NCBI GenBank assembly: GCA_963785725.1 | Contig: CAWAWS010000008.1 | Span: 1 to 64,000 of the forward strand | Direction of reading: 5' to 3' | Length of the DNA stretch: 64,000 bases | Origin: an uncultured delta proteobacterium | GTDB lineage: Bacteria; Myxococcota_A; Polyangia; Palsa-1104 | Shown: piece by piece, positions 84 through 19,819 of the stretch | How positions within the stretch are numbered: the stretch's first letter is position 1 | Layout: each line of letters opens with the position of its first letter | The notes under the pieces: model-generated | Database searches by the model: none | What the model saw: the letters and a program-made list of their open reading frames with translations, nothing else | Told to the model about the DNA's origin: nothing | Translations under genes and position numbers: made by a program

Positions 84-1377
84 GTGGCAAGTAGCCGCGG
101 CCTCGTCGCCTTGGTCGTGGCCTTCGTCGGCTGCGGTGGCGGCAGCGGCGGGGCGCGCGATCTCGGCGTCGGCGTCGACATGAGCAGCGCCGACCTCGGC
201 GCCGGCGATGCCGGCGGCGACATGGCGCAGCCCGCGTGCATCACGCCGGCGACGCCCGGCAGTCGTGCAGCCGCGCCGGTCATGACCAAGCTGCCCATCT
301 GCAAGCTGAGCCAGACCGGCTGCATGGACGCGCGAGCCCACGCAGTTCGCCGCCGACGCGCAGTCTATTACGAGGTCAACAGCCCGCTGTGGTCCGACAA
401 TGCGGCCAAGTCGCGCGCCTTCGTGCTGCCCGACGGCGGCACGATTCACGTCAAGAATTGCGGGCCGACGCACGCCGACGCAGCTGGCCGAATGCAGTGT
501 CGCCGATCGGCATCCCCAATGGCGACGGCCGAGACCGGCAAGTGGGTCTTCCCCGTCGGCACGGTCATGATCAAGAACTTCATCGTTCGACGGCAAGCTC
601 GTCGAGACGCGCCTCTTCATGCACGTCGACGCGCGCGACCGCGAGCTCATCCAGAACGGCAGCCGACTGGGTCGGCTACAACTACGCCTGGAACGAGGCG
701 CAGACCGAAGCGACGCGTCGTGCCCGACACGCGCACCGCCGTGTCAGTTCAACACCGGCGCGCAGACGGTGACGTGGAACTACCCGAGCTTCACCGACTG
801 CATCGGCTGCCATAGCCCGGCGTCGACACGATGGGCCCGGAGACGGACGCAGATGAACCGCACGGTCGACGGCGGCAACCAGATCGACACGTTCGTCGCG
901 ATGGGCCTCTTCGACGACACGGCGCCGGCGAAGCCTTACGCGACGCCGCTCGTCGAGCCGTACGCCAACGCGGCGCTGGGGCTCGACCGGGCCGCCGGCC
1001 GGCGCGACCGTCGATCAGGAGGCGCGCTCGTACCTGAGCGCGAACTGCGGCTTCTGCCATCGCCCCGACGTCAACGACCAGGGCTTCGACTTGCGCTATT
1101 CGCTCTCGCTCTACGAAACCAAGGTCTGCAATCTCACGCCAACAGAACGGCATCCCCGGAATGACGACCACGCAGTACGTCGGAATTCGCGCCCGGCAAT
1201 CACGCCGGCTCGGCCTTGTGGGTGCGGATGAACATCCCGGTGCCCGACGGACGACGTCGCACGAGAGTGACAACGTCGGGCGCATGCCGTCCGCGCGCCA
1301 GCTTCGTCGTCGACGCGCAGGCCACGGCGCTCATCGCCGCCTGGATCGACGGCACCGCCAGCTGCCCGACGCAATAG
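84..1377 (+). CDS. Lipoprotein with SO2930/HNE_0200-like diheme c-type cytochrome domain, split by several frameshifts
   Basis: Lipobox-like FVGC; YEVNSPLWSDNAAKSR and WVFPVGTVMIKNF motifs; two CxxCH motifs in different frames (CIGCH ~799-813, CGFCH in ARSYLSANCGFCHRP ~1046-1060); ends IAAWIDGTASCPTQ-TAG at 1377. Confidence 0.65.
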
Positions 1378-1380
1378 CCG

Positions 1381-2349
1381 CTACGGCGCGACGACCACGT
1401 CCCAAGGCTCGCCGCCGACGGCGATGCGGCGGTCGACATTGCCGCTGACGACGTCGATGATCGACAGATTGTGGCCGCTGCCGTTGGCGCTGTAGAGGTG
1501 GCGGCCGTCGCGATCGAGCGCCAGGCCGAGCGGCGCTTGGCCGGCGCCGTCGATGCTGCGCAGCTGGCGTCGTGCGGCGACGTCGAGGATGGCGACGGAG
1601 GCGCCGCGGCCGCAGCTGACGTAGAGCGTGTGGCCGTCGGCCGATAGGGCGCCCCCCGAGGGGTGCACGCCGGCGGGCGCGGCCGAGTCCTGCGTGACGG
1701 CGATGTTGCCGAGCGGCGCCAGGCTCGCGGCATCGAAGACCGTGACCGCTTTGCCGCGCTCGCTCATGACATAGGCGGTGCGTCCGTCGTCGCCGAGGAC
1801 GACGGCGCGCGGGCCGGCGGCGACGGGGATGCGGGCCACGACGGCGAAGCTGTGCGCGTCGACGGCGACCACCTGGTCGGCGCCGGCGACGGAGACGAAG
1901 ACGAGCTGGCCGTCGGGGCGCACGGCCACGCCCGCGGGCTTGGCGCCGACGGCGACGCGACCGCGCGGCGCGCCCGTGACGGCGTCGACGGCGACCAGCT
2001 CGCCCGCGCCGTCCGTCGCGACCCAAAGCGTGCCGTCGACGCGCGACACGGCCAACGCCGCCGGCTTGCCGTCGACGAGCAGCTTACGCACCGTTCGTTG
2101 CCGCAGGTCGACGACGGCCACGCCGTCGGCGACCGCGACGTAGAGCCGTCGCTGCTCGGTCAAGAGCGCGAGGCCGCGCGGCTCGGCGCCGACGTCGATG
2201 CGGTCGAGCACCTGAGCGGCGCGCGGATCGACCGCGATCACCTGTCGGCCGGCGTGATCGCTGACCCACAGGCGCGGCCCGGGCGGCGAACGACGCGCGC
2301 AACCGAGCGACAAGCCGAGGCAAACGAGTAGCGCGCAGGTCTTGGCCAT
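1381..2349 (-). CDS. YVTN/YncE-type beta-propeller lipoprotein
   Basis: Lipobox SLGC; repeated blades such as IDVGAEPRGLAL, VAVGAKPAGVAVRPDG, IPVAAGPRAV, IAVGGEPWDVVV. Confidence 0.85.
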   Translation of the reverse strand: MAKTCALLVCLGLSLGCARRSPPGPRLWVSDHAGRQVIAVDPRAAQVLDRIDVGAEPRGLALLTEQRRLYVAVADGVAVVDLRQRTVRKLLVDGKPAALAVSRVDGTLWVATDGAGELVAVDAVTGAPRGRVAVGAKPAGVAVRPDGQLVFVSVAGADQVVAVDAHSFAVVARIPVAAGPRAVVLGDDGRTAYVMSERGKAVTVFDAASLAPLGNIAVTQDSAAPAGVHPSGGALSADGHTLYVSCGRGASVAILDVAARRQLRSIDGAGQAPLGLALDRDGRHLYSANGSGHNLSIIDVVSGNVDRRIAVGGEPWDVVVAP

Positions 2350-2382
2350 GCTCGATATGTACTACGGCCGCCGCCGCCGCCG

Positions 2383-4656
2383 TTACGGCAGATGCCAGGT
2401 GACGCGGCCGAAGACGCGGCGCAGCGGCGCATAGGCGCTCCCGACGACGCTGGCGGTGCCGATGCGATAGGCCCACAGCTCGTCGCCGAGGTTGAGGATG
2501 TCGACGGCTGCCTCGGGTTGGCCCCAGATGTCGAAGCGGTGGCGCAAGCTGACGTCGACGGTGGCGTGCTGCGGCAGCGCCAGCTGGTTGCTCTCGCCGG
2601 TACGCAAGCCGCTGCCGTATTGCACGAGCGCGCTCACGTGCGTGCGCTGCGCGCGATCGTGCAGATCGACGCCGGCATTGAAGGTGACGATCTGCTGGTG
2701 GTCGAACGCTTGCCAGCCGGCATACGCCAGCTGGTCGGCGTTGAAGAGATACTTCGAGCTGACGATGCCTTGGCCTTGCACCGCCTGCAGCGAGACGTTG
2801 CCGAACGTCGTCAGCCAGCGCGTCGGGATGAGCTGGAATTCGAGCTCGAGACCGCCGCCACGCCCACGCCGGTAGTTGTATTCGGCCTTGAGGTCGGTGT
2901 TGCCGATCTCCTCGTCGTCGAGCGGATGGTTCATGAGCCGGCCCCACAGCGTCACTTCCGTCTCCAGCCACGGCTTGGGCCGCACGGCCACGCCCACCTC
3001 CGCCGACCACGTCTCTTCGGGGCGGACGTCGAGCTCGAGCGGCTGGCCGGGCGGCACGAGGCCGAGCGCGCGCGCCGCCGTCGGCGCGTCCAGCGACGGC
3101 GGCTGCCACAAGTAGCCGACGAAGGCGTGCAGCCGCACCAAGCGGCCGAGATCGTAGGTCGCGCCCAGGCGTCCCGACGGCGTGTCGAAGGTGATGGTGC
3201 GCTCGGCGGGGACGGCGATGGCTTGCAGGTCGAAGCGCACGCCGCCGAGCAGCGTCAGGCGACCCCAGGTGAAGCGATCTTGCGCGAAGGCGACCACGCT
3301 GCCGATGTGCGTGCGATCGCGGCCGCCCAGCGTCAGCGACGGGTCGGGACCGCCGGCGGGCGCGCTGTCGTCGCGCGTGTATTGCTTGTAGCCGATGCTG
3401 TTCTCCTCGTCGCCGCCCTGCAGCCCGGCTTTGAGCAGGTGATGCTGACCGAGGAAGATCCAATAGTGCAGGATGGCGTTGTAGCTCTGCGCGCCGTGGT
3501 TGATGTCGCTGCAGATGGTGCCGGGATCGGCGGTGGCGCCGAGGCTGCGCGTCGGATCGCAGCTCAAGTCGCCTTCGGAGTCGCGCACGATGGCGGCGGC
3601 CAGCCAATTGCCGTGGGCGCCGCTGTGACGATAACTGACCGTGGCCAGAAGGTCGCGCTCGCGCTCGAGCGGGTTGGAGTCGAGCGGGATGTAGCGCGGC
3701 GGATCGTTGCCATACTGGTCGGGCCCGCGCACGGCGCCGGGCGGCGCGTCGGCGAGCGGCAGCAGCGTCGGGTCGAGCGGGATCTGCAGCGTCGACTGGC
3801 GGTAGGCGAAGGTCGCTTCCAGGCGATCGTGCGTCGTCAGACGATAGGCGGCGCGCGCCAACACCTCGCCGCTCTCGGTCTGGTCGTGGACGATGGGATT
3901 GGCGTCGGGCGTGTCGAGGCCGCGGTCGGTGCGCTCGTAGTTGCCGGCGACGAGCAGGCTGAAGCGGCCCCAGCCGGCCGCGTAGGCCGCCGACGGGCGC
4001 ACGGTGTCGTAGCTGCCGTAGGTGATCTTGGCGTAGCCGACCTGCCCGTGCTCGGGGAGCAGCGTGCTCAGCGCTGCGACGCCGGCGACGCCGCCGTATT
4101 CGACCGGCATGCCGCCGATGGTCAAATCGACGCGCGTGATGAGCTCGGTCGGGATCAGCGTCAACAGCTGGTTCGACAGCGCGGCCGGCAGCGGAACGCC
4201 GTCGAGCCAGTAGCTGATGTCTTCGTAGTTGCCGCGCACGTGGTTCTGGCCGAGCGCGTCGGCGGTGACGCCGGGCAGGACGCGCAGCGCCTCGGGCAGC
4301 TCGCGGTCGACGGCGCCGGGGATCATGCGCAGCGTCGCGGCGTCGAGCTGGAAGGTGCTGCTGCCGGTCTTCGGCGTGTCTCGGCTGCCGATGACGCTCG
4401 ACTGATACGCCGGAACGAGCGTCCCCGGCGCCGTCTCCATTGGCGTCGTCTCCGGCTGCGGCATTGGCGGCACCGTCGATGGCGTTGATGGGGTCGTCTG
4501 AAGCTGCGGCTGCGGCGTCGGTGTCGGCGTCGGCTGCGCCGTTGGCGTTGGCGTCGGCTGCGCCGTTGGCGTCGGTGTCGGCGTCGGTGTCTTGTCGGCC
4601 GAGGCGACACGCGCGAGGCCGAGCGCGAGCGCGAGCGTGAGGAGCCCGCGCGTCAT
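2383..4656 (-). CDS. TonB-dependent outer-membrane receptor
   Basis: Signal peptide, Pro/Thr linker, plug motif LRVLPGV...HVRG...YWLDGVPL, beta-barrel strands (AFAQDRFTWGRLTLLGGVRFD), C-terminal DILNLGDE...RRVFGRVTWHLP. Confidence 0.9.
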   Translation of the reverse strand: MTRGLLTLALALGLARVASADKTPTPTPTPTAQPTPTPTAQPTPTPTPQPQLQTTPSTPSTVPPMPQPETTPMETAPGTLVPAYQSSVIGSRDTPKTGSSTFQLDAATLRMIPGAVDRELPEALRVLPGVTADALGQNHVRGNYEDISYWLDGVPLPAALSNQLLTLIPTELITRVDLTIGGMPVEYGGVAGVAALSTLLPEHGQVGYAKITYGSYDTVRPSAAYAAGWGRFSLLVAGNYERTDRGLDTPDANPIVHDQTESGEVLARAAYRLTTHDRLEATFAYRQSTLQIPLDPTLLPLADAPPGAVRGPDQYGNDPPRYIPLDSNPLERERDLLATVSYRHSGAHGNWLAAAIVRDSEGDLSCDPTRSLGATADPGTICSDINHGAQSYNAILHYWIFLGQHHLLKAGLQGGDEENSIGYKQYTRDDSAPAGGPDPSLTLGGRDRTHIGSVVAFAQDRFTWGRLTLLGGVRFDLQAIAVPAERTITFDTPSGRLGATYDLGRLVRLHAFVGYLWQPPSLDAPTAARALGLVPPGQPLELDVRPEETWSAEVGVAVRPKPWLETEVTLWGRLMNHPLDDEEIGNTDLKAEYNYRRGRGGGLELEFQLIPTRWLTTFGNVSLQAVQGQGIVSSKYLFNADQLAYAGWQAFDHQQIVTFNAGVDLHDRAQRTHVSALVQYGSGLRTGESNQLALPQHATVDVSLRHRFDIWGQPEAAVDILNLGDELWAYRIGTASVVGSAYAPLRRVFGRVTWHLP
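4505..4590 (-). repeat. Coding Pro-Thr low-complexity repeat (PTPTPTAQ units) in the receptor N-terminus
   Basis: Repeated ggcgtcggctgcgccgttggcgt units; translation TPTPTPTPTAQPTPTPTAQPTPTPTPQPQ. Confidence 0.75.
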
Positions 4657-4868: not shown

Positions 4869-4928
4869 CGAGGCTGCACGATAGCAGCTGCCGTGCGCCT
4901 CCACTCGCCGCCGCGCACGCAGCGCGGG

Positions 4929-5368
4929 TCAGAAGCCTTTGGGCGGGAGCGCGCGCAGATAGGCGACCAGCCCGCTCTGCTCGGCGGCGCTGAGCGTGAA
5001 CTCGTGGTTGGGCGCGATGAGCGGCGTGCGGTCGGGATACTGGCCGAGCGTCATGATGCCGACGAGGTCGGCGTCGGCGTAGAAGGCTTCGTACGTCGGC
5101 GTGTTGTCGACGCCGCCGGCGCCGTCGTGGCCGCCGAAGTCGGCGAACAGATTGAATCGGGAAGTCGAGCGGCGTGGCCGAGGCGACCAAGGAGGCGCAG
5201 CTGGGTCACCGAGCGGCCGTCGAAGCGGGCGGTCACCGACAGCTGATCGGCGACCGTGCCGCGTCCGCCGACGGTGAGGACGACGCCGTCCGGGTGGCAG
5301 CCGGCGGCGGGACGAACGGCAAGAACAGGCGCACGAACGGGACTGCGGACATGGATGACGGAAGCCAT
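4929..5368 (-). CDS. Hypothetical lipoprotein, frameshifted
   Basis: N-terminal MASVIHVRS...AAGC in one frame; C-terminal FNLFADFGGHDGAGGVDNTPTYEAFY...EQSGLVAYLRALPPKGF-stop in another frame with GC3-rich codons. Confidence 0.4.
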
Positions 5369-5507
5369 CGACAGCAAGAACCTGGCCGCTGACGGGCGCG
5401 CGCTTTCGCGTGGTTGCGGTGGCGCTCGGATGCGCCGCTGGGGAGCGCGGTTCCCAGCGCGGACAGCTGGGCGCGGACGCGAATGCCCGCTTGTCGCCGG
5501 CGTCCGA

Positions 5508-6713
5508 TCAGCGGTTGTCGAACGTGCGCGCGATCTTGAGCTGCGTCGCACCCTCCGCGAACGCATCGGCGGCCTGCGACAGCGCCTTCTGCGAGTGGCG
5601 CACCGTCACCTGGGCGCGAATGCGCGCCGCTCCCTCGGGCACGACCGGATGGCAAAAGCCGATGCAGAAGACGCCCTTGCCATAGAGGAAGTCGGTCAAG
5701 CGCTGTGCCGCGACGGCGTGGCGGGTCAACACGATGACCGCGGGGTGCTCGCCTTCGGCGGTCCACAGCCCGTGCTCGGCGAGCGCGTCGCGGAACAGCT
5801 TGACGTTCAGGGCCAGCTGCTCGCGCAGCTGCGGCTCGGAGCGCAACAGCCCGAGCGACGTGAGCGCCGCCGCCACCGACGCCGGCGGCAGCGCCGTCGA
5901 CGACAAATACGGGCGCGACTTCTGCCGCAGCCACGTCACCAGCTCCTTGCGCCCGGCGACGAAGCCGCCGGCCCCACCGCCGAGCGCGACGCCGAAGGTG
6001 CCGGTGACGAGGTCGATGCGATCGCCGAGGCCGAGCTGATCGTGCGTGCCGCGGCCGCGCTCGCCGACGATGCCGACGCCGTGGCTGTCGTCGACGACGA
6101 CGAGCGCGTTGTACTTCGCGGCCAGCCCGTAGATGTCGCGCAGGTTCGCCGTCAGCCCCGACAGCGGGAAGACGCCGTCGGTGACGATGACGCGGAAGCG
6201 GGCCGAGCGCGAGCGCCGCAAGCGGTCCTCGAGGTGCTCCATGTCCTGGTTGCGATAGGAGTAGACGCGCGCGCGGCACAGCCGGATGCCGTCGGCCAGG
6301 CTGGGTCGCACCAGCTCGTCGCAGAACAGATAGTCGCGATCGGAGAGCAGCGACTCGAAGAGGCCGGTGTTGGCGTGATAGCCGCTGGCGAAGACGAGCG
6401 CGTCGCTGGTGCCGAAGAAGCCCGCCAGCTCGCGCTCGAGCTCGGCGTGCAAGGGCAGCGTGCCGGCGGCCATGCGCGGCGAGGCGACGCCGACGCCCCA
6501 TTGCTCGATGGCGCGAATCGCCGCCTGCTTCACCGCCGGATGCTGCGACAGCCCGAGGTAGTCGTTGGACGCGAAGTTGGTGAGCTCGCGATCGCCGACG
6601 CGGATGGTCGGTCCGGGCGGCGTCGACAAGAGCGGCTCGCGACGCAACAGCCCCGCCTCTTCCAGGTGCTTGGCCTCGGTGCCGAGGAAATCGAGGAACG
6701 CGCTGTTTCTCAT
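5508..6713 (-). CDS. KBL/AONS (alpha-oxoamine synthase) family PLP-fold protein lacking the catalytic lysine; probable pseudoenzyme
   Basis: NFASNDYLGL, GTLPLHAELE, ANTGLFE, VTDGVF, VDDSHGVG, PVVPEGAARIRAQV are typical of kbl; the family motif GTLGKALGG reads GTFGVALGG. ATG at 6713 overlaps the upstream TGA. Confidence 0.85.
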   Translation of the reverse strand: MRNSAFLDFLGTEAKHLEEAGLLRREPLLSTPPGPTIRVGDRELTNFASNDYLGLSQHPAVKQAAIRAIEQWGVGVASPRMAAGTLPLHAELERELAGFFGTSDALVFASGYHANTGLFESLLSDRDYLFCDELVRPSLADGIRLCRARVYSYRNQDMEHLEDRLRRSRSARFRVIVTDGVFPLSGLTANLRDIYGLAAKYNALVVVDDSHGVGIVGERGRGTHDQLGLGDRIDLVTGTFGVALGGGAGGFVAGRKELVTWLRQKSRPYLSSTALPPASVAAALTSLGLLRSEPQLREQLALNVKLFRDALAEHGLWTAEGEHPAVIVLTRHAVAAQRLTDFLYGKGVFCIGFCHPVVPEGAARIRAQVTVRHSQKALSQAADAFAEGATQLKIARTFDNR

Positions 6714-7336
6714 TTGCCGCTCCCGGCCGGCTCGGTGGCGATGAACCATAAGAGCGACGACGCGCAGGCCTGCCACGGCATCGCGTTGTCGTCGCTCGCG
6801 GCGAGGCAGTAACGATCGATGGCGCGCCCGAGCTCGGCGTCGCTCGGCAAAGGACCCGTGCGCAGCCGGAAGTCGACGGCGAGCGCGCCGGCCAGGCGGC
6901 GGCTCTCGTCGGCCAGCGCGCGCCGGTAGTCTTTGGCGGTGGTCATGATCTGGTAGCGCTGCTCCGTCGGGATGAGCTGGGCGTCGCCGAGGAGCTTGGC
7001 GACGATGACGTCGAGGTCGACGGCGCAGCGCTGCGCCTCACCGCCGCGCTTCTTGCAATATTGGCGCGACGCGGTCATCAGGCACTCGAGCTTCAAGCGC
7101 TCGATCTCGGACGCGCAGCTCGAGCGGCTCATCACCTGCGCATAGTTGGTCGCTTGCGCCAGCGCTTCCGCCGGCGTCGCGCGCAGCGCCGCCAGCGCCT
7201 CGTCGAGGTAGGCGACCCGCGCGGCGGCGCCATACGGCTCATCGGCGCCGGCGACCGCGCCGCCGAGGACGACCGCGCAGCCGAGGACGAGCGCGCCCGC
7301 CAGGTTGCGGCGTCGGCGCGCGCCGGCGCGACTCAC
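6710..7336 (-). CDS. Exported helical Cys-rich hypothetical protein
   Basis: GTG start overlapping the upstream TGA; Arg-rich then hydrophobic signal (RRRRNLAGALVLGCAVVLGGAVAGA); six Cys in the mature part. Confidence 0.7.
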   Translation of the reverse strand: MSRAGARRRRNLAGALVLGCAVVLGGAVAGADEPYGAAARVAYLDEALAALRATPAEALAQATNYAQVMSRSSCASEIERLKLECLMTASRQYCKKRGGEAQRCAVDLDVIVAKLLGDAQLIPTEQRYQIMTTAKDYRRALADESRRLAGALAVDFRLRTGPLPSDAELGRAIDRYCLAASDDNAMPWQACASSLLWFIATEPAGSGK

Positions 7337-8859
7337 AGCCGCCCTCGCAGTCGAGCATACTGGCCGCGGAACAGCCCGACGTAATTGCGCAGATGCCGCT
7401 CGTAGGGATAGACCTCGAGCAGATCGGGCCGCGTCGTCATGAAGCCGGGGTCGAGGTAGATGTCGACCGCGTCGAGGCCGTACAGGCGCGTCAGAAGATA
7501 GTCGCGGCCGGCGAACGCGGCCTGCATGCCGCCGGTGGCGCGCGCGTCGAGGCCCGCTTCGCTGAGCAGGGCGCCATAGTGGAAGCCGGGCGCGAGCAGG
7601 CGCGCGACGGCGTCGTAGCGATCGGTGTACAGCGTCGCGCCGGCGGGCGAGGGTGGCACGTGCAGCTCGGCGACGGTGAAGTGGTGGCCGGCGAAGTCGA
7701 ATGGCGTCGACGTGAGCGCCTGCGCCGCGTCTTCGAAGTAGCACTGGAAGGTGATGAACGCGCCACTCGGATGTTGCCGCGACAGGCGTTCGCGCTCGAG
7801 CACGGTGGCGACGTCCGTCGACGCCAGGAGCGCGCGCGGATCGGCGGCCAGCCGCTTGCACGTATCGAGCGCCGCGCCCCAGTGCACGTGCACCTCGCGG
7901 CAGCTGGCGGCGGCCGGCTCGTAGCGGCTCTCGAACATCAGCTGCGCGACAACGTGCTCGAAGACCAGGCTCGCTTGCCGCTCGCCCGTCGGCGCCGGCC
8001 GGTGTGCCAGCGCGCGATAGCGCTCGCAGCTCGCCGCACGGAACGCGCCGTCGCCGGGATCGGGCAGGTTGGTCCACAGCTGGTGCGAGGCGTGCGGCGC
8101 CGTCGCCAGCATCTCCGCCTCGGCGCGTCCGCGCTCGCCGGCGTGGTCGAGCCGCGCGCCGAGGTCGCGCGTGTGCGGCTCGGCCGGGCTCGGGCGCGAC
8201 GTCAGCTTCGTCCACGTGCCGTCGAGGAGGCGCCAGGCGTAGTGCAGCGCCGGCTCATCGCGCTGCCGTCGCGTGCACGGCGGCGCCGCTTGCGCCCGGC
8301 GCTCGGCCGGCGCGCATTGGCCGAGCGACTTCACGTAGCCGAGCGCGAAGGCGCGCTGCATGAGCGCGCAGCCGGGCACGTTGGGATCGGCCGGCGGCGC
8401 CGGCGCCGCCGGATCGGCGCACCAGGTCGCGCCGTACTGGCCGGCCGGCTGCACGAGACCGAGGAGCAGCCCGAGCGCGCGCGCGTCGATGCAGGCGAGC
8501 GCCAGCAGCAGCGCGATGGCCACGCAGACGGCGCGATGGAGCCGCGGGCCCAAGTCGAACGCCTCGCCGCGGTTGTCGCCGAGCGTGATGCGCCGCGCGT
8601 CGCCGCCGACGAAGTGCGCCTCTTCCGCCGTCCACTGGTCGCGCTTGGACGCGAAGCGGAAGTAGTGCAGGCTCGGCTCGTTGAGGCGCCAGAAGCGGAA
8701 GACGAGCGTGCCCACGACGACGGCGAAGCAGCCGACGAAGAAGAGCGTGCCGGCGCCGCGGCTGGCGAGCCGCTCGGGCGCGAGCACCCCGAAGCTGAGG
8801 GCGGCGGCGACACCGGCGACGAGCAGCGTCAGCGTCACCAGCGTCTTGGCGCCGATCAC
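7333..8859 (-). CDS. Membrane protein (about 3 TM) with a large Cys-rich extracytoplasmic domain, hypothetical
   Basis: GTG at 8859 overlapping the motB-like TGA; two N-terminal hydrophobic helices, a third at AVCVAIALLLALACI, then a ~370-aa domain with 8 Cys. Confidence 0.75.
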   Translation of the reverse strand: MIGAKTLVTLTLLVAGVAAALSFGVLAPERLASRGAGTLFFVGCFAVVVGTLVFRFWRLNEPSLHYFRFASKRDQWTAEEAHFVGGDARRITLGDNRGEAFDLGPRLHRAVCVAIALLLALACIDARALGLLLGLVQPAGQYGATWCADPAAPAPPADPNVPGCALMQRAFALGYVKSLGQCAPAERRAQAAPPCTRRQRDEPALHYAWRLLDGTWTKLTSRPSPAEPHTRDLGARLDHAGERGRAEAEMLATAPHASHQLWTNLPDPGDGAFRAASCERYRALAHRPAPTGERQASLVFEHVVAQLMFESRYEPAAASCREVHVHWGAALDTCKRLAADPRALLASTDVATVLERERLSRQHPSGAFITFQCYFEDAAQALTSTPFDFAGHHFTVAELHVPPSPAGATLYTDRYDAVARLLAPGFHYGALLSEAGLDARATGGMQAAFAGRDYLLTRLYGLDAVDIYLDPGFMTTRPDLLEVYPYERHLRNYVGLFRGQYARLRGRL

Positions 8860-9455
8860 GGCAACTCTTTGGCGCGGCTGACCAGCTTGTCCTCGACGGT
8901 GATGCGGCGGTTCTTGGCCTTCGCCTCGCGCACCGCCGCCTGCTCGGTCGTGGTCAGCGTGCCGCCGAACGCCGGCACCTCGATGGCCGGCGTGTTGTCG
9001 GCGTGCGTGCAGATGACGACGTGATCGGGCACGTCGCTGCCGTAACGGGCGATCTCGTGGTAGGCCGCCATCGCGCGCTCGTAGCCGAGCTGCAGGTTCT
9101 TCTCCTTCTGCCCTTCGTTGTCGGTGTGGCCGTGGATGACCAGCATGCGCTTTTGCAGCGGCCCGACGTCGAAGTTGAGCACCGTGTGCGTCTCGTCGTT
9201 GAACAGCTTCGACATGATCTCGTGGCCGCCGTCGCTGAGCTCGCTCTTTCCCGTCGGAAACAGCACGTCGCCGGGCAGCGTCACCATCTTCACCGTCTCG
9301 GTGCCGACGGTGTCCGAGAGGCCGCTCTTGCGCGGCCGCGACTGCACCGCCCACAAGACGACGAAGAAGATCATCACGTTCGTCATCAGATCGATGTAGA
9401 CGATCTGCCAGATGTCGAACGCCCGCCGCTGCCGCGACTCGCGCCGGCGGATCAC
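8856..9455 (-). CDS. motB: MotB-like stator/OmpA-domain protein
   Basis: TM motif WQIVYIDLMTNVMIFFVVLWA with the conserved Asp (9390-9392); OmpA-like peptidoglycan-binding motifs DVLFPTGKSEL, GHTDN, NLQLGYERA, KNRRITV. Confidence 0.85.
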   Translation of the reverse strand: MIRRRESRQRRAFDIWQIVYIDLMTNVMIFFVVLWAVQSRPRKSGLSDTVGTETVKMVTLPGDVLFPTGKSELSDGGHEIMSKLFNDETHTVLNFDVGPLQKRMLVIHGHTDNEGQKEKNLQLGYERAMAAYHEIARYGSDVPDHVVICTHADNTPAIEVPAFGGTLTTTEQAAVREAKAKNRRITVEDKLVSRAKELP

Positions 9456-10270
9456 TTCTGGACCTCGATGAGCGCCTGGTTCTCGAACACGACCTTGAGC
9501 GCGCGGCACAAGGTGTCGTAGTCGTAGTCGAGCCCCTTCAGTCGCTGCTCGAAGCGCGTCGCCGAGATCTTGTAGAAGGCCGAGAAGACGACGCCGTAGA
9601 GCGTGCACTTGAGCGCCAGCGCCAGCTGCGGCGCGATCGACTCGATGGTGACGGCGCCGCCGAGGCTGTCGAACATGCTGATGAGGCCGAGGACGGTGCC
9701 CATGAGGCCGAACAGCGGCATGGCGCCGGCCACGAAGTCGAGGTGCGCGCCCGAGTGATCGTAGAGCTCGTGGCACTCGACGTAGTACGAGTAGACGACG
9801 TACTCGGCGTAGTCGAAGCTCTTGCCGCGCTCCTGCATGGTGACGAGGTCGCGCACGAGCGGGTTGTCGGGCAAGGGCACGCGCGCGCCCTTGTCGACGG
9901 GACCGACGCGCATCTCGCCGTCGCGATCGCGGCGCATGGTGAGCCGCTCCTCGAGCGCCGCCAGCGTCTGCTGCAGCTGCGCCGCCTTCGGCGTCAGGTG
10001 TCGCGACGAGAAGAAGACCGTCATCGTCGACAGCATCTGCTTGCCGATCTCGGCGCCGGTCGCATAGACGAGCAGCGCCAGCGACACCAGCATGAGCGCG
10101 ACGAAGAAGTTCTCGGTGACGAAGAAGACCGCCGCCACCGCCAGGATCGCGCCCATGCCGACGAGGCCGACGACGCCGGCGCCGGCCGCCTTCTTGCTGA
10201 CGGCGAGCGTCGACTTGTTGATGACCTCGAAGAAGCCGGACGGGCTGTTGCTCTGTCGTGGGTCGCTCAT
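9452..10270 (-). CDS. motA: MotA/TolQ/ExbB proton-channel family protein with MotA-like 4-TM topology
   Basis: Two N-terminal TMs, a cytoplasmic domain, then AMPLFGLMGTVLGLISM and ALALKCTLYGV; directly upstream of the motB-like gene. Confidence 0.85.
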   Translation of the reverse strand: MSDPRQSNSPSGFFEVINKSTLAVSKKAAGAGVVGLVGMGAILAVAAVFFVTENFFVALMLVSLALLVYATGAEIGKQMLSTMTVFFSSRHLTPKAAQLQQTLAALEERLTMRRDRDGEMRVGPVDKGARVPLPDNPLVRDLVTMQERGKSFDYAEYVVYSYYVECHELYDHSGAHLDFVAGAMPLFGLMGTVLGLISMFDSLGGAVTIESIAPQLALALKCTLYGVVFSAFYKISATRFEQRLKGLDYDYDTLCRALKVVFENQALIEVQK

Positions 10271-12534
10271 CGGATGCCGCTCCTTGCCGCCGGCGCGGAA
10301 GCCCGCATGCGCTCGACGTAGATGGGGTGATAGTCGAAGGCGTCGCGCACGGCGACGTAGAGCGCGCCGCCGGCGACGACCGCCAAGACGAGCGCCACGG
10401 CCGTGCCGAGCGCGCGATCGGCGCGCCGCGCCAACGGCGCGTGGAAGAGCCGCGACAGCCACAAGAGGCGATTGCGCGGCGTCGCCGCCAACAGCTGCCG
10501 CTCGACGGTGGGGATGGCCTGGCGATCCATGTGCTCGAGCAGCTCCTTCGACGTCTGGATGAGCTCGGGCGCGTTGGCGCGCGTCGTCAGCGACGGCTCG
10601 GCGCCGCCGCGCAGGAACGCGAGGTACTGAATGAGCGGGTGCAGGCCCTGGTTGAGCGCCGCCTCGGCGTCGGCCACGCGCGCCGCCGGGCCCGACAGAA
10701 AGCGGTCGTAGACGTCGACGGTGGCGGCGACGAGCCAGCGGCGCAGGCGCGACGCCTTGCGTCCCGTGAGCGCGAACCCGAGCCGCAGCGTCGTCAGAAA
10801 CGTGTCGCGGCTGCGGAAGCGGCCGAGCTCGCGCAAGAGCGCGGCGAACAAGAAGTCCTTCTGCGTCGGGTCGCTGTCGTCGATCTCGTCGTCGTCGACG
10901 TCGCGGGTAAAGGCGGCGTAGTGCTCGGTCAAGAGCTGGCGCACGATCTCGAAGTCTTCGTTGCCGTCGGCGATGAGCGGCACGCCGTCGCTGGCCGGCT
11001 GCGGCATGACCCAGCCGAGCAAGGTCGCATTCTCGCCGAGGACGCGTGGCGCCGCGGCGCGCGGCCGCGCCGGCGCCACCGTCAGCTCGTGGCGGCGCTG
11101 CTCGGCCGAGCGCTCGTGCAAGGTGGCGTCGCGCCCGCGCTTGCGCCGGTCGTCGACGGCCGGCTGGATGAAGCCGAAGGGCAGCTCTTCCTGATTGACG
11201 GTGCGCTCGGGCAGCTCGGTCTCGTCGGGCAGCTGGCCGAGCGCGGCGTCACGCACCAGCTCGCCGACGAGGATGCGCGGGCGCGCGAAGCCGCCGCCGT
11301 AGCTGACGACGCCGGGCAGCGCGCTCGGCAGAAACAGCGTGCGCTCGAACAGGGTCGGGTCGATGTCGACGCCGTTGCGGCGGATGTAGCCGCGGAAGTA
11401 GCGCTTGATGGTCGCATGCCAGGGATTGCGCGCCGTCGCCGCACCGATGACGAGGTGGACGTCGAGGTAGGCCGCCACGTTGTCGACGAGCGTGAGCAGC
11501 CAGAAGTGGACGAAGAGCCCGACGGTGGGCAGCGCCAACATGAAGGTCGCGCGCCGCGGCAGGCCGAGCGCGTCGCAGGCGACGAGCGCGAGCCAGAACA
11601 GCGGCAGGTAGGCGACGAGCAGGCAGGCGCGCAAGAACGCGAGGATGAGCCACGACTGCAGCAGCGGCCAGATCGCGTCGTGGCGCGCCTGACCGAGGCC
11701 ATGGATCGGCGACAGGATCCAGCTGACGTGAATGAGCGCGAACGCGCCCCAGATCATGCCGGCGGCGATGGCGACGGCGAGCTCGCCGGTCGCGCCGGCG
11801 TCGGCGACGGCGGCGACGGCCCGCGCCGGCAGATCCGTCGTCACGACGGCGACGGCGACGAGGCCGAGTGCGGCGATGAGCGCGCCCGACCACTTCCACG
11901 ACGCCGGCCGGCCGCGCCGCGCCAGCTCGCGCGCGCTGACGAGCAGGCGCGTCCACAAGGGCGGCAGCGCCACGAGCAGCATGAGCGCCACGAGCAGCGT
12001 CGCCAACAGCCGCGGATGGCCGGCCGGCGCCGTCGCCGTGACGGCTGCGGGCGCCGCTGGCGCGCCGCGCTGCGGCCGCTCGTCGACGAGGCCGCCGCGC
12101 TGCACGATCGGCCGCGCCAGCTCGCCGATGTGCCGTCGCAGCGTGGCCGCGTCGACGTGCGCCACGGCCAGGCTGCCGTCGAAGGCGCGGCCGCGCATCC
12201 AGGTGGCGTAGACGTCGTAATCGAGGAGCCCCTGGCGCAGGCTGCCGAGCACGACGATGTCGACGCCGGCGTCGCGGTAGCGATCGACGAGGCAGCGCGG
12301 GTCGCGGCCGGGACAGGCGCGCGCGTCGAGCTTGTCGGCGAGCGTGACCGAATGGAAGCGCGACAGCTCGCGCGCGATGGTCTGCTCGAGCGCGGCGGCG
12401 AACCAGCCGTCGCCGGCCGACGGCGCCACGTCGACCACCACCGCGACGGCGGACGGCGCGGCCGCGGCGCGGCCGGCAGCCACGACCCCGACGACGAGAG
12501 CTACGACAGCGGCGCGCACGATCGGATCACACAA
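10267..12534 (-). CDS. Large polytopic membrane protein with an N-terminal periplasmic domain and a degenerate M48/M56 peptidase-like domain
   Basis: Signal peptide (likely GTG at 12519), CPGRDPRC-containing domain, about 5-6 TMs, then SYGGGFARPRILV...LFAALLRELGR...ARVADAEAA...TPRNRLLWL, and a C-terminal TM. Confidence 0.7.
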   Translation of the reverse strand: MCDPIVRAAVVALVVGVVAAGRAAAAPSAVAVVVDVAPSAGDGWFAAALEQTIARELSRFHSVTLADKLDARACPGRDPRCLVDRYRDAGVDIVVLGSLRQGLLDYDVYATWMRGRAFDGSLAVAHVDAATLRRHIGELARPIVQRGGLVDERPQRGAPAAPAAVTATAPAGHPRLLATLLVALMLLVALPPLWTRLLVSARELARRGRPASWKWSGALIAALGLVAVAVVTTDLPARAVAAVADAGATGELAVAIAAGMIWGAFALIHVSWILSPIHGLGQARHDAIWPLLQSWLILAFLRACLLVAYLPLFWLALVACDALGLPRRATFMLALPTVGLFVHFWLLTLVDNVAAYLDVHLVIGAATARNPWHATIKRYFRGYIRRNGVDIDPTLFERTLFLPSALPGVVSYGGGFARPRILVGELVRDAALGQLPDETELPERTVNQEELPFGFIQPAVDDRRKRGRDATLHERSAEQRRHELTVAPARPRAAAPRVLGENATLLGWVMPQPASDGVPLIADGNEDFEIVRQLLTEHYAAFTRDVDDDEIDDSDPTQKDFLFAALLRELGRFRSRDTFLTTLRLGFALTGRKASRLRRWLVAATVDVYDRFLSGPAARVADAEAALNQGLHPLIQYLAFLRGGAEPSLTTRANAPELIQTSKELLEHMDRQAIPTVERQLLAATPRNRLLWLSRLFHAPLARRADRALGTAVALVLAVVAGGALYVAVRDAFDYHPIYVERMRASAPAARSGIR

Positions 12535-14743: not shown

Positions 14744-17700
14744 TCAGGACGCCGGGCGTGCCGGCGCGGTGGTGCCGCCGCCGCGCAGCTGCTCGACCTT
14801 GGCTCGCGCGCCCCAGCGCTCGTAGGCGGCGATGGCGTCGCGCCGGCAGTCGGCCGCGGTGTGCGGCTCGCCTTGCGCCGTGGCGTGGCGCGCGGCCAGC
14901 TCCAGCGCCAGCGCCTCGACGTCGACGGCGCCGCTGCGTCGCGCCACGAGGACCGCGGCCTGATAGCCGGCGGCGGCGGCGACGGCGCGGCCGGCCACAC
15001 GCGCCGCCTCGGCCTGCGCCAGCCGATGGCGCGCCGCGAAGTTCTCCGGGCACTCGGCCGCCCAGCGCCGCAGCTGCGCCACGCCGTCGGTCAGCCAGCG
15101 CTGCAGCCGCCGGCGCTCGTTGGTCGCGCCGTCGGTCAGGCGCTGCGCGGCGATGAGCACGCGGAAGAACGTGCGCTTGACCTGCGCCAGGCTGGCGAAC
15201 ACCGAGCGCTCGCGCCGATCGGCCTCCAGCATGTTGCGATAGGCCGCCGCGTAGTCGCCGAAGTAATAGCCGATGATCGCCTTGCCGCCGAAGTAGGTGG
15301 CCAGCGCCAGCGGCGTGTGCTCGTCGCTGAGCGAGGCGCGCAGCTCGGCTTCGGAGCGATCGGGCAACCTGAACGAGCGCGTCGCCGGACCGAGCGGCTG
15401 GCGCAGCGACTCGTAGAGGCCGAGCCGCAAGGCGTTGGCGGCGCTGAGATCGACGTCGCGCTCCTGTCGCGCCAGCTCGGCGGCGGTGCGCGCGACCTGC
15501 AAGAGCTCGTCGAGGTTCGGCGCGCTGAGCTCGAGCATCATGGCCAAGTTGCCGAGCACGAACAGGCGATAGGTGCGATCGCCGAGCCGCACGCTGGCGT
15601 CGTAGGCGCGGCGCAGCCTGAGCTCGGCCTGCGCGAACGGCCGCACCCACGGGATCAAGAAGGCGCCGCTCATGTAGAGCACCTTGGCCTCGAGGTCGCC
15701 GCCGCCGAAGCGCTCGTTGAGCTGGATGGCCAGCTCGCCCAGCTCGAAGCCCATGCGATAGCGCTGAAAGCCGCCGGTCATGACCATGCCGTAGCCGACG
15801 AAGCCATAAGCCGATTCCGCCGCCATGCCGTGCTCGAGCGACAGGCTGGCTACCTTGAGCAGCACGAAGGACAACAGCGTGCGATCGACCATGTACGCGG
15901 CCGGCGCCAGCGCCGTCAGAAGCTGCATGGCGCAGCGCGTGCGCGGATCGTTCGAGATGGGCAGCTCGGCCAGCTCGGCCAGCGTGCGCCGGCCTTGGCG
16001 CAGGCGGAGCAGCGCCAGCTCCTTGACGATCGACAGCTTGCCCGGCGCCGCCGGCAGCGCGACGCCGAGCGCCTGCAGGCCGGCGCGCGCCGAGTCGATG
16101 GCGTCGCGGAATTCGCCGCGCAGCCGCTGGACGGTCATGCGCAGCGCGTACAGCTCGGTGCGCTCGCCGTCGTCGCGGGCGCGGACGAGCGCGGTCGTAA
16201 AGGCGGCGTTGGCCGCATCGACTTGGCCCAAGAGGTAATAGAGCTCGATGCGCTCCTTGGCGAAGGCGAAGCGCAGATCGTCGGCGTCGGCGAGCGCGGC
16301 CAGCGTCGGCGCGCCGTCGGTGACGTGCTTGAGCGCGGCGGCGAAGGCGGTGGCCAGCTTGGCTTTGCGCGCCGCGCGCAGGATGAGCGCGAGCAGCTGG
16401 CGACGCTCGGCGGTCGAGTCGATCAGCGCGACGCCGCGCTGCAGGTGGCTGACGATGGTGAACAGCGCGTCGTCGAGCGCATCGGCGGGCGTGTCGGCCA
16501 AGAGGCTGCGTCCGATCGACAGGTGCAGCGCCAGCCGGCCCACGTCGCCGCGCTCGTGCGCGCCGGCGCGCTCCCGGTCGTCGCCGGCGCCGCGGCTGAC
16601 GATGGCCTCGCGCAGCCGGTCGTGATAGGGCTCGACCAGCCGCGCGTTGCCGCGTCGCGTGACGCGAATGAGGTGCGTGACGCGCAAGGCGCTCATGAGC
16701 TGCAGCGCGCCGCCGACGTCGAGCCCGGCGGCGCGCGCCAGGACCTGGAACTTGACCGGCGCGCCGGCGAGGGCCACGCACTCCATGAAGCGGCGCGCCG
16801 TCTCGTCGAGCTCGCTGACCCGCTGCCACAAGACCGCTTGCAAGCTCGAGGCGCCCGGCCGCTGGTCGCGGCTCGGCTGTCGTCGACTGCGCGCCAGCTC
16901 CGAGAGGAAGAGCGGATGGCCGGCGGCCTCGCTCAGCATGCGATCGACGTCGTCGAGGGCGAGCGGGCCGCCGTCGCCGTCGCGACCCAGGCGCGCCACG
17001 AGCGCCGCCGCCTCGTCACGCGACAGGCCGCCGAGTCGGATGTGGCGGCGCGACACGTCGCGGGCCGTGGGCGCGCTCACGCTCGCGGGATCGCCGGCGG
17101 GCGCGAGGCGACGCGTGGCCAACAGCATGCACGGCGGCCCGTCGGGCGCGAGCAGGTGCGCCAGCAGATCGAGGCTGTCCTGATCGGCCCACTGCAGGTC
17201 GTCGATGAAGAGGACGAGGTGCAGCCGCTCCGACAGCGCCGTCAAGAGCCGCGCCAGCTCTTGGAACGCGCGCTCACGCAGCGCCAGCGGGTTCTCTTGC
17301 GCGCCCAGCGGCTCTTGCGCGGCCACCGCCGGCACCAGCCGCAGCACGGGGAAGAGGGTCCCGAGGTGGCGCAGGTCGAAGCCCAAGAGCGGGAGCGCCT
17401 CGGTCTCGTCGAGCGCGTTGAGATAGGCGGCCAGCGCGTCGATGACGCTGTCGAAGGCCTTGAACGGCACCTCCTCCTGCTCGTAGCAGCGCCCGGCCAA
17501 GACCACCGCCGCCGGGTCGAGCGCCACGTGCCGCTCGAGGAAGCGGCGCACCAGCAGGCTCTTGCCCACGCCCGGCTCGCCCTCGACGATGACCAGCTCG
17601 CGCGTGCCCGCTTGCACGCGGCGATAGGCGTCGACCAGCTCGGCCAGCTCGGCGCCGCGACCGACGAACGTCGCCGACAGATTGCTCGACGTCTCGTCGG

Positions 17701-18622
17701 CGGTCGCGCTCGCGTCGTCGTCGGCCTCGAGCGCGCGCAGCACCGCGTCGCCGCGCGGCCGCTCGGCCGGCTCGCGCGCCAACAGCGCCTGGCACAGCGC
17801 ATCGAGATCGGGCGGCACGTCGCTGACGAGCGAATGCGGCGCCGGCGCCGGACGCGTGCGCTTGGCCTCGACCACGACCGGCGGCGGGCCGACGAACGGC
17901 AACGCGCCGGTGAGCGCCAGAAACAGCACGCAGCCGAAGGCGTACCAATCGGCCTCGGGCCCGACCTTGCGCTCGTCGATCTGCTCGGGCGCGATGAAGT
18001 TCGGCGTGCCGCACAAGGCGCCGGTGTCGACGCCCACCTTCTCCATCAGCCCGAAGTCGAGCAGCACCACATGGCCGTCGTCGCGCACCATGACGTTGGA
18101 CGGCTTGATGTCGCGGTGGACGCTGCCGGTGCGATGGAGCGCGTGGATCGCCTGCGCCAGCTGGCGGGCGGCGGCGCGCAGCCGCGCCTCGTCGTAGCCG
18201 CGGGCGTGGTCGCGCTCGGTCGCGGCCGGCCGCGCTGCCGCCGCGAACGATTCGGCCGGACCGTTGGGAATGACGACCGGCAAGGTCGGCCCTTCGTCGG
18301 GCAGCGGCACCGCCGGCAAGCGCACGTAGGTCAGAAAGTCGCAGCCGCGCACCAGCTCCATCGTGAAGAACCACTGATCGGCGTCGCAGTAGAGCTCACC
18401 GAAGTGGATGAGGTTGGGATGCTGGATGTCGGCCAGCTCGCGGAACTCGTGCTTGAGGCGAAAGAGCAGATCGGCGCTGAAGTCGCGCAGCGTCTTGATG
18501 GCGACGTGGGTGTCGGTCTCGCGATCGAGCGCCTCGTAGACGACGCCCATGCCGCCCGAGCCGAGCTTGCGGAGCAGCTCGTAGCGACCGGAGGCGAGCG
18601 ATTGCTTCATCATCGGCGCCAT
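14744..18622 (-). CDS. Ser/Thr kinase fused to an AAA (STAND-type) ATPase and TPR-like C-terminus
   Basis: LGSGGMGVVY, VAIK, HRDIKPSN, DFG, APE; Walker A GEPGVGKS; Walker B LFIDDLQWAD; GHPLFLSEL. Confidence 0.92.
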   Translation of the reverse strand: MAPMMKQSLASGRYELLRKLGSGGMGVVYEALDRETDTHVAIKTLRDFSADLLFRLKHEFRELADIQHPNLIHFGELYCDADQWFFTMELVRGCDFLTYVRLPAVPLPDEGPTLPVVIPNGPAESFAAAARPAATERDHARGYDEARLRAAARQLAQAIHALHRTGSVHRDIKPSNVMVRDDGHVVLLDFGLMEKVGVDTGALCGTPNFIAPEQIDERKVGPEADWYAFGCVLFLALTGALPFVGPPPVVVEAKRTRPAPAPHSLVSDVPPDLDALCQALLAREPAERPRGDAVLRALEADDDASATADETSSNLSATFVGRGAELAELVDAYRRVQAGTRELVIVEGEPGVGKSLLVRRFLERHVALDPAAVVLAGRCYEQEEVPFKAFDSVIDALAAYLNALDETEALPLLGFDLRHLGTLFPVLRLVPAVAAQEPLGAQENPLALRERAFQELARLLTALSERLHLVLFIDDLQWADQDSLDLLAHLLAPDGPPCMLLATRRLAPAGDPASVSAPTARDVSRRHIRLGGLSRDEAAALVARLGRDGDGGPLALDDVDRMLSEAAGHPLFLSELARSRRQPSRDQRPGASSLQAVLWQRVSELDETARRFMECVALAGAPVKFQVLARAAGLDVGGALQLMSALRVTHLIRVTRRGNARLVEPYHDRLREAIVSRGAGDDRERAGAHERGDVGRLALHLSIGRSLLADTPADALDDALFTIVSHLQRGVALIDSTAERRQLLALILRAARKAKLATAFAAALKHVTDGAPTLAALADADDLRFAFAKERIELYYLLGQVDAANAAFTTALVRARDDGERTELYALRMTVQRLRGEFRDAIDSARAGLQALGVALPAAPGKLSIVKELALLRLRQGRRTLAELAELPISNDPRTRCAMQLLTALAPAAYMVDRTLLSFVLLKVASLSLEHGMAAESAYGFVGYGMVMTGGFQRYRMGFELGELAIQLNERFGGGDLEAKVLYMSGAFLIPWVRPFAQAELRLRRAYDASVRLGDRTYRLFVLGNLAMMLELSAPNLDELLQVARTAAELARQERDVDLSAANALRLGLYESLRQPLGPATRSFRLPDRSEAELRASLSDEHTPLALATYFGGKAIIGYYFGDYAAAYRNMLEADRRERSVFASLAQVKRTFFRVLIAAQRLTDGATNERRRLQRWLTDGVAQLRRWAAECPENFAARHRLAQAEAARVAGRAVAAAAGYQAAVLVARRSGAVDVEALALELAARHATAQGEPHTAADCRRDAIAAYERWGARAKVEQLRGGGTTAPARPAS

Positions 18623-18688: not shown

Positions 18689-19819
18689 TCATTCGTGCGC
18701 GGCGCCCGTGAAGAACGCGATGAGGCCGAGCGGGGCGCGGTCGTCGTAGAGGAGAGCGAGCAGGCGGTGCGCCTCTGCGGCTTCGGCCTGGCTGCGCGGG
18801 AACAGCGCCTGCTCGTACTCGGTGAGCGCCGCTTCGATGTCGTCGGGGTGCGCGGCGATCGCCTTGCCGAGCTCGGCGCCGTCGAACATCGCCAGGTTCG
18901 CGCCCTCGCCGGACGGCGGCATCAGGTGCGCGGCGTCGCCGAGGAGCGTCACGCCGGGCACGCGGTCCCAGCGGTGCCCGATCGGCAGCGTGTGGATCGT
19001 GCGCGGGACGGGCGCGGTCTCGCCGTCGGTGATCAGCGCGGTGAGCGCCGGCGCCCAGCCCGCGAACTCGGCCGCGACCGCCGCCGTCGCCGCCGGTGCG
19101 TCGGTGAAGTCGATGCCGCGAACCACGAAGCGGGGCGTTGCAGCGCGACGTAGGTGTGCAGGACGCCGTCCGGCTCGCGGTGCGCGTGGATCCCCTTGCC
19201 CGGGGCGAGCGCGAACATCGCGCCTCCGCCGACCGCCGCGGCGCTCGCCGCGTGCCGCTCGTCGGCGTCGTACAGGTACGTCTCGATGAACGAGGTGCCG
19301 ACGTACTCGGGCTGGGCGTCGGAGAGCAGCGGCCGGACCTTCGACCAGGCGCCGTCCGCGCCGACGAGGAGGTCGGTCCGAACCGTCGTCCCGTCGGCGA
19401 AGGTCAGCTCGTGCCGGCCCTCGCCGAGCGCGCGAACCGCGGTGAGCTTCTTGCCCCACGCGATCGACGCCGCCGGCAGCGAGTCGACGAGCAGGCGGCG
19501 CAGGTCGCCGCGAAGAACCTCGGGCCGACCGCCGCTGCCGTCGTCGGGCTCGTCGAGCAGCACCGTGCCGTGTCGGTCGAGCCCGCGCAACGCCTCGCCG
19601 CCCTCGTGGATGAGCCCGAGGAAGCGGTCGTAGAGCCCCGCGGCCTTGAGCGCGAGCTGCCCGTTGTGCTGGTGGATGTCGAGCATGGCCGCCCTGGGTG
19701 CGGGCGTCGGCGGAGGCGTCCGCCTCGTAGATCGTGGCCGGGATGCCGTGGACGTGCAGGACGCGGGCGAGGGTGAGGCCGCCGAGGCCGGCGCCGATGA
19801 TCGTGACCTGCGTCGTCAT
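18689..19819 (-). CDS. TetX-like FAD-dependent monooxygenase (two frameshifts, ~19690 and ~19120)
   Basis: IIGAGLGGL, RTQGG-MLDIH, RPEVLRGDLR, LVGADGAWSKVR, LLGDAAHLMPPSGEGANLAM; ORFs 18689-19819 and 19033-19686 combine into one protein. Confidence 0.85.
   Translation of the reverse strand: MTTQVTIIGAGLGGLTLARVLHVHGIPATIYEADASADARTQGGHARHPPAQRAARAQGRGALRPLPRAHPRGRRGVARARPTRHGAARRARRRQRRSARGSSRRPAPPARRLAAGGVDRVGQEAHRGSRARRGPARADLRRRDDGSDRPPRRRGRRLVEGPAAALRRPARVRRHLVHRDVPVRRRRAARGERRGGRRRRDVRARPGQGDPRAPRAGRRPAHLRRAATPRFVVRGIDFTDAPAATAAVAAEFAGWAPALTALITDGETAPVPRTIHTLPIGHRWDRVPGVTLLGDAAHLMPPSGEGANLAMFDGAELGKAIAAHPDDIEAALTEYEQALFPRSQAEAAEAHRLLALLYDDRAPLGLIAFFTGAAHE

Follow-up and report, generated by a model that had tools for sequence, protein, structure and literature searches.

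The window, that is, the whole stretch of 64,000 nucleotides analysed here, comes from an uncultured delta proteobacterium. Its minus strand carries a six-gene operon that runs from 12534 to 5508 and in which all five gene junctions overlap by 4 nt. The six genes, called G1 to G6, are as follows:

10267..12534, minus strand: G1, about 750 aa, with the start at 12519 or 12534
9452..10270, minus strand: G2, MotA/TolQ/ExbB-family subunit, 272 aa, without a long cytoplasmic tail
8856..9455, minus strand: G3, MotB-type subunit with a linker of 23-31 residues between TM helix and an OmpA-like wall-binding domain
7333..8859, minus strand: G4, 508 aa, three predicted TM segments followed by a large Cys-rich domain with 8 invariant Cys
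6710..7336, minus strand: G5, 208 aa, one N-terminal hydrophobic segment and six invariant Cys
5508..6713, minus strand: G6, Kbl/alpha-oxoamine-synthase (AOS) homologue without the PLP lysine, 401 aa, soluble

The G6 frame (5508-6713) was translated into 401 aa with zero internal stops, and its ATG overlaps the G5 stop (ATGA). No promoter or terminator consensus was detected at positions 4900-5600 of the window. Among the six operon products G6 alone is without a hydrophobic segment, and it is therefore taken as the cytoplasmic component of the operon.

To place the residues of G6 we used an alignment to E. coli Kbl (1fc4_A; chain numbering minus 3). The initial annotation had described G6 as a lysine-less Kbl homologue with Arg at His136, Pro at Ser185 and an intact ORF, and the 1fc4 alignment and the translation showed this description to be exact: all three catalytic positions are replaced. 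Lys244 of Kbl corresponds to V242 (GTLGKALGG reads GTFGVALGG; codon GTC at 5988-5990, three changes away from AAG or AAA), His136 to R136 (LNHAS reads VRPS; codon CGA at 6306-6308), and Ser185 to P183 (DGVFSMDG reads DGVFPLSG; codon CCG at 6165-6167). Additional substitutions, absent from the earlier list, are C111-F112 to GY, A137 to P, and N275 to T; the His-Ala-Ser motif, which stacks the PLP ring in Kbl, has become R-P-S. S110-G-Y, D209, S272, and R366 are retained, and the motif RSRxxRFR (residues 167-174) has been gained. The nearest solved structures are Kbl enzymes (3tqx, E 3e-111; 1fc4, E 6e-100). The predicted G6 model (pLDDT 92) superposes on Kbl structures with Z 54-55, rmsd 1.6-1.7 Å, and 40-44% identity; the fold-type-I AOS fold is thus present. 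G6 shares this fold with Kbl (TIGR01822; PDB 1fc4, 3tqx, 7v58), its sister clade, but it lies in a motor operon, carries the new RSRxxRFR motif, is without Lys244, His136, and Ser185, and scores below the Kbl equivalog cut-offs of NCBIfam (TIGR01822, 404.7 < 493; NF005394, 432.8 < 460). We hold with high confidence that the G6 of the window is not a Schiff-base enzyme.

The same change is found widely among relatives. Lys occupies the catalytic column in 6/121 sequences (the query and the best 120 of 7404 homologues listed, 55-96% identity), which indicates more than chance or a sequencing error. We then pooled the best homologues with locus-derived copies into a clade set of 135 sequences, with a deep subgroup of 8 kept separate. 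The 135 sequences are akin and include a few near duplicates, so the counts are not independent of each other. Lys is present in 6 members, His136 in 11, and both together in 0. Ser185 is found in 3, His213 in 52, Asp210 in 133, and Arg368 in 100. The DDSH motif, said earlier to be kept, is indeed intact in the G6 of the window (where D210, H213, and R368 of Kbl are retained); across the clade its His is in just 52/135. Well kept are the phosphate-cup positions S110 (132/135) and S272 (118/135), together with D209 (133/135) and R366 (100/135). The equivalents of His136, His213, Ser185, and Asn52 all drift, and Arg368 too is gone in one subclade. At least 11 different residues occupy the Lys column, which argues that the position is unconstrained. 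The six Lys-bearing members form one nested group lacking His136, His213, and Arg368, and their Lys thus looks regained by drift. The only strongly conserved lysines in the clade are K62 (93%) and K265 (96%), the latter at the place where active Kbl has an Arg beside K244.

Selection on G6 was estimated with the Nei-Gojobori method. In eight lysine-less pairs dN/dS was 0.15-0.39 (near-identical pairs L037-L061 and L042-L075 excluded), compared to 0.18-0.38 for MotA in the same eight pairs and 0.04-0.26 for active Kbl in four pairs; high GC likely depresses dS, so these values lean upward. The proposal that G6 is a conserved pseudoenzyme under purifying selection is well supported by these ratios and by the shared losses, and strain-specific decay, which close orthologues with Lys and His would have indicated, is contradicted. 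Conservation is also distributed differently than in Kbl. Segment 126-174 is better conserved in the G6 clade than in Kbl (0.86 vs. 0.73), whereas the active-site segments are less so. The motif RSRxxR[FY]R occurs in 133/135 clade members and 7/8 deep members vs. 0/51 active Kbl sequences (this set was picked by Lys, His213, and Asn275, so its counts in these columns follow from the choice itself). In net charge the basic segment exceeds that of Kbl only modestly (+6.3 in the G6 clade vs. +4.0), and deep members are lower (+2.5). As judged from these alignments, constraint in G6 is shifted from the active-site segments to the Arg-rich segment 126-174.

In a tree of 66 sequences (150 iterations) the operon G6 proteins formed one clade (UFBoot 96) that is sister to Kbl. 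Its deep branch mostly keeps Lys and His136 and has lost Ser185, His213, and Asn52. Lys and His136 were found in 8/8 deep members, and Ser185 and His213 in 0/8; Lys and His136 are also kept at the deep loci L160, L162, L167, and L185. Inside the deep branch Lys was lost at L100 and L166, and further deep loci read Lys, Asp, Asp, and Asn. Two histories have equal cost on the tree: in one, Lys is lost three times and regained once; in the other, a loss is combined with two regains and another loss. The former is more natural because Lys and His136 persist together. Since deep members within the operon keep both residues, catalysis appears to have been shed inside the operon: the G6 gene probably entered it as an enzyme and lost catalysis there. 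The deep members with Lys and His136 may still be enzymes, and they provide a natural series for enzyme-to-pseudoenzyme conversion. These members, like the predicted second pseudoenzyme described below, are absent from the initial annotation.

The linkage of G6 to the motor genes was examined from both ends of the operon. Among loci found from G6 (chosen by the P137 signature, which omits L043, itself a full operon), G5 or G4 was present in 36/37 distinct loci with ≥400 nt upstream, and G1-G4 were present in 21/21 loci with ≥6.5 kb upstream. The search from G4 gave 26 loci in 25 genomes, with G6 following G5 in 24 of them and a G6-clade gene in all 25 genomes. In genome G678 the operon contig breaks off within G4, and a G6-clade gene is located at the end of another contig. 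In genome G654, G1-G5 are located on C38 (L159), and the G6-clade gene stands apart on C508 (L166) behind a thioredoxin-like gene; this G6 has Lys changed to Asp and Arg368 to Gln, with the RSR motif retained. Synteny thus strongly bears out the suggested link between G6 and the motor operon (36/37, 21/21, and 24/26 loci), and we are fairly confident that G6 works with the motor genes. G4-bearing genomes amount to 16/401 of the class and 9/301 in a second sample. By title, the records belong to Polyangia, Myxococcaceae, Archangiaceae, Myxococcales, and unclassified deltaproteobacteria; all of these titled records are metagenome-assembled. In genome G635 the complete six-gene operon is present twice, as divergent copies (C468 and C501; L132 and L138), both with a Lys-keeping G6.

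Among the other five genes, G2 and G3 encode a MotA/MotB-type ion-motor pair. In an alignment of 20 MotA and 22 MotB homologues, P185, T192, P214, and T223 were invariant in G2, and D22, GHTD, and NRR in G3. D22 of G3 aligns with D22 of C. jejuni MotB, which the consulted sections of PMC9389320 give as the proton-binding residue. By family profiles G3 matches MotB_plug and OmpA, not ExbD. With its profile, G4 falls into a family of 264 representatives at 50% identity; neither G4 nor G5 had a family or significant match in Pfam and PDB profile searches. G5 is likely a periplasmic protein.

G1 is predicted to consist of a signal peptide, a FlgT/TolB-N/PelC-like periplasmic domain, five TM segments, an M48/M56-like domain, and a C-terminal TM segment. 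In the G1 model (pLDDT 84) the periplasmic domain resembles FlgT (Z 11.2), TolB-N (Z 10.6), and PelC (Z 9.8). ESM Atlas returned only leads of ≤0.80, CsgG/LpoB-like in the case of G1. The motif pattern of the C-terminal half, read by eye, resembles that of M48/M56 peptidases. In a wide fold search with the whole-G1 model, all five rows spanning residues about 195-693 were M48/M56 proteins (3c37, Z 8.3; ZMPSTE24, 7.8; BepA, 7.8; Ste24, 7.4; BlaR1, 7.1), with modest Z-scores near the noise level of the search tool for helical proteins. Foldseek on the whole model matched the N-terminal domain only, with none at E < 0.001 and no M48 report. Pfam and PDB profile searches of G1 gave nothing significant, and M48 was not reported by Pfam. 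HExxH is found in 0/70 G1 homologues; the site reads RExG, and the third-ligand position is not Glu. The C-terminal half is therefore predicted to be an M48/M56-like domain without zinc ligands, a second dead enzyme: its predicted fold is like that of the metallopeptidases Ste24/ZMPSTE24, BepA, and BlaR1, whereas the G1 homologues lack HExxH and have a long acidic insertion. A conserved acidic loop, DDDExDDTDP, lies in this domain, which is predicted to be cytoplasmic. With a lysine-less G6 and a G1 domain devoid of HExxH, two pseudoenzymes likely accompany the intact motor in this operon. A complex prediction of G1 (355-700) with G6 scored 0.16 against a mark of 0.32 and was counted neither way. 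At L133 (10799-14644) and L134 (11125-14814) the G1 open frames extend to 1230-1282 aa with low-complexity N-terminal stretches, in which no added Pfam domain was found. Two records, P0134 and P0291, were rejected as gene fusions and read as frameshifted.

Known MotAB-type motors each drive a separate process, such as flagellar rotation, uptake, outer-membrane upkeep, gliding, or phage defence. We compared the operon with these systems. With the flagellar stators MotAB/PomAB, G2 and G3 have in common the Pro/Thr residues of MotA, Asp22/32 of MotB, and the OmpA-like domain. In contrast to those stators the G3 linker is short (23-31 residues; for E. coli a segment of 52 residues is given in PMC12505986, with boundaries that are not defined identically), and the operon has four extra conserved genes. 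Of 19 operon genomes, 5 had a strong FliG_C match, 4 a weak one, and 10 none, genomes 97-98% complete among them, so that 14 are without a strong FliG; in the genome of the window the FliG contig carries other MotA-family genes. A flagellar stator identity was rejected on the short linker, the scarcity of FliG, and the separate MotA genes on the FliG contig. TolQRA/ExbBD-TonB and Myxococcus AglRQS-Glt share the MotA/TolQ/ExbB-family A subunit, and G1 has a TolB-N/FlgT-like periplasmic fold, but the B subunit G3 is of the MotB/OmpA type, not of the ExbD/TolR type, and on this ground a Ton/Tol/Agl identity was rejected as well. Profile searches gave no TonB/TolA family match among the six operon genes. 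The passages of PMC12505986 and PMC12204202 used for this comparison show no Ton/Tol/Agl system with such an OmpA-type B subunit.

Some features are shared with Zorya. The top profile match of G3 is ZorB1 (E 2e-14), ZorB is also among its PDB matches, and the wall-binding domain is close to the TM helix as in Zorya. ZorAB is likewise a non-flagellar MotAB-type pair that comes with a soluble cytoplasmic product. In PMC11946911 it is proposed that ZorB is linker-less, that closeness to the membrane gates wall binding, and that soluble effectors are recruited. Given the resemblance of G3 to ZorB, we may fairly infer a gating by envelope distance. One could go further and regard the operon as a Zorya-like anti-phage or envelope-breach sensor, in which the short-linked MotB anchors as the membrane nears the wall and the motor recruits G6 as effector or adaptor. 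Such a machine would be compatible with a non-catalytic G6 and would differ in its purpose; the ZorB matches, the short linker, the proposed mechanism, and the patchy occurrence (16/401 genomes of the class) speak for it. Against it, G2 has no ZorA tail (272 aa; E 0.09 vs. ZorA), ZorC/D/E effectors are not adjacent, and there is no nuclease or helicase gene, the soluble product being a pseudo-Kbl. PADLOC on 99 flanking ORFs gave only generic kinase, AAA, TIR-type or partial matches, outside a defence-island context, and G4 was not found in the plasmids, phages or viral contigs searched. Moreover, members from the same family group together in the tree, and the GC content of the operon matches that of the window. 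We rejected identity with Zorya on the tail, the nucleases, the PADLOC matches, and the distribution of G4, and consider the Zorya-like purpose unlikely. By the sequence features tested, the motor is distinct from the flagellar, Zorya, Ton/Tol, and Agl machines. A six-gene unit that fails the defining features of each motor tested points to an unassigned output in Myxococcota.

If G6 is not itself an enzyme, it could be the silent half of one. It had been suggested that G6 heterodimerises with an active paralogue in the manner of SPTLC1/LCB1, and in the corresponding rival explanation it pairs with the housekeeping Kbl or another active AOS and tethers it to the membrane complex. R80, S266-R267, and S272, which we take to be residues that one AOS subunit lends to the site of the other, are largely kept in G6. 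A separate Kbl over the cut-off was found in 7/10 further operon genomes tested. Precedents with a dedicated partner subunit are SPT1/SPT2 (PMC6148460) and the tandem-encoded Serratia Ser4/Ser5 (PMC11726168), as far as the sections consulted go; PMC6148460, a review from 2018, describes the SPT heterodimer of eukaryotes as unique within the alpha-oxoamine synthases. SPTLC1/LCB1 and Ser4 of SerTA are, like G6, fold-type-I subunits without the PLP lysine and other active-site residues. But the origin of G6 is separate, from Kbl (LCB1, E 1e-42 to 1e-28 vs. Kbl, 1e-111), and unlike these subunits it is tied to an ion motor and has no co-encoded active partner: no active family member was seen inside the operon at any locus examined. 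In the genome of the window (G000, 88% complete) the sole other family member is BioF in the bio cluster (L002, C19:121028-125161), which adjoins BioA and has Lys and His intact, and no Tdh over the cut-off was found. No Kbl over the cut-off was found in G000, G641, G645, and G002, all of them incomplete assemblies (G002, 53% complete), and in these families Kbl occurs commonly, whether the operon is present or not. The search for an active paralogue thus did not bear out the suggested heterodimer; with no co-encoded partner and four genomes showing no Kbl over the cut-off, an SPTLC1-like arrangement is quite improbable. A lysine-less alpha-oxoamine synthase arose independently in this bacterial clade, seemingly without a partner. 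In the genus of the window Kbl occurs patchily: the Kbl match of one genome has an internal TAA (L019, G001 C1043:13265-14425), and both Kbl and the operon are missing from genome G003 (99% complete).

There is somewhat more room, though still little, for a G6 that remains an enzyme with altered chemistry and makes or modifies an aminolipid or a signal for the motor complex; deep members would bind PLP covalently, and the lysine-less ones would use PLP/PMP non-covalently or work without a cofactor. The high retention of S110, S272, D209, and R366, the Lys and His136 of the deep members, and the recurrent ABC1/UbiB kinase and alpha/beta hydrolase neighbours (10 loci), which hint at lipid metabolism, are in line with it. 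Yet no consistent lysine substitute appears, His136, His213, Ser185, and Asn52 drift, and one subclade is without Arg368, residues on which, according to PMC6148460, PLP binding and catalysis depend in this family; even the deep members are already without Ser185 and His213. We regard this reading as rather unlikely. Apparent frameshifts in other genes of the window could invite the view that G6 is a decaying pseudogene or an assembly error, but more than 100 homologues share the losses, the frames are intact, dN/dS is far less than 1, and a conserved motif has been gained. This makes such a view extremely improbable, and strain decay was ruled out.

The reading that we favour, with moderate confidence, is that G6 has no catalytic function and serves in the cytoplasm as a docking or regulatory subunit of a membrane motor that is proton-driven and anchored to the wall. 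In this mechanism the OmpA domain with its short linker would fasten a MotA5B2 unit to peptidoglycan, and the unit would rotate as ions flow. The periplasmic part, held together by disulfide bonds, would be made up of G4 and G5, and G1 would pass force or a signal through the membrane. An acidic face on the cytoplasmic side, such as the DDDExDDTDP loop of G1, the cytoplasmic domain of MotA, or anionic lipid, might be where the basic patch of the G6 dimer docks. Non-covalent binding of a small anionic ligand in the remodelled G6 pocket (phosphate cup, D209, R136) might gate or report the activity of the motor; the putative acyl-CoA/amino-acid sensing suggested earlier is possible. The output of the motor may be envelope sensing or remodelling, lipid handling, or phage defence. 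A broader proposal, which we advance tentatively and hold to be somewhat short of an even chance, is that the operon specifies a 5:2 ion motor class of its own, different from the flagellar, Ton, Tol, Agl, Gld, and Zorya systems, and that two dead enzymes are built into it. The M48 protease domain without zinc would grip or relay across the membrane, and the Kbl without its lysine would serve as cytoplasmic load or metabolite-sensing clutch. Living intermediates would then document how an enzyme turned step by step into part of a machine. With a soluble G6 and six genes within 7 kb, these claims are directly testable. No description of the operon or of the G6 clade was found in the literature searched (subscription papers and supplements lay outside its scope).

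Other genes were observed around the operon. Downstream of it on the same strand lie a TonB-dependent receptor and a beta-propeller protein (window 1381-4656, minus strand), for which no match was found in the ten related loci compared. A Ser/Thr kinase-AAA protein is encoded nearby (14744-18622, minus strand) and has relatives near the operon at several loci; Ser/Thr kinases are abundant in these genomes, so this link may be due to chance. Two genes of the window, named from sequence reading as flavin-monooxygenase-like (18689-19819, minus strand) and lipoprotein-like (84-1164, plus strand), appear split across frames, which suggests frameshifts or contig assembly errors. Genes for an alpha/beta hydrolase or an ABC1/UbiB atypical kinase with a C-terminal ribosomal L7/L12-CTD-like domain adjoin the operon at 10 loci; none was found in the genome of the window, and they are therefore accessory. 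They are located at L039:3573-4742, L034:7129-8232, L043:11225-12358, L044, L077:2894-4015, L041:2325-4238, L071:2026-3660, L132:12168-13550, L186, and L187, the last two being known from the L7/L12-like part only. Two such genes stand in tandem at L034, L071, and L132, and position and orientation vary.
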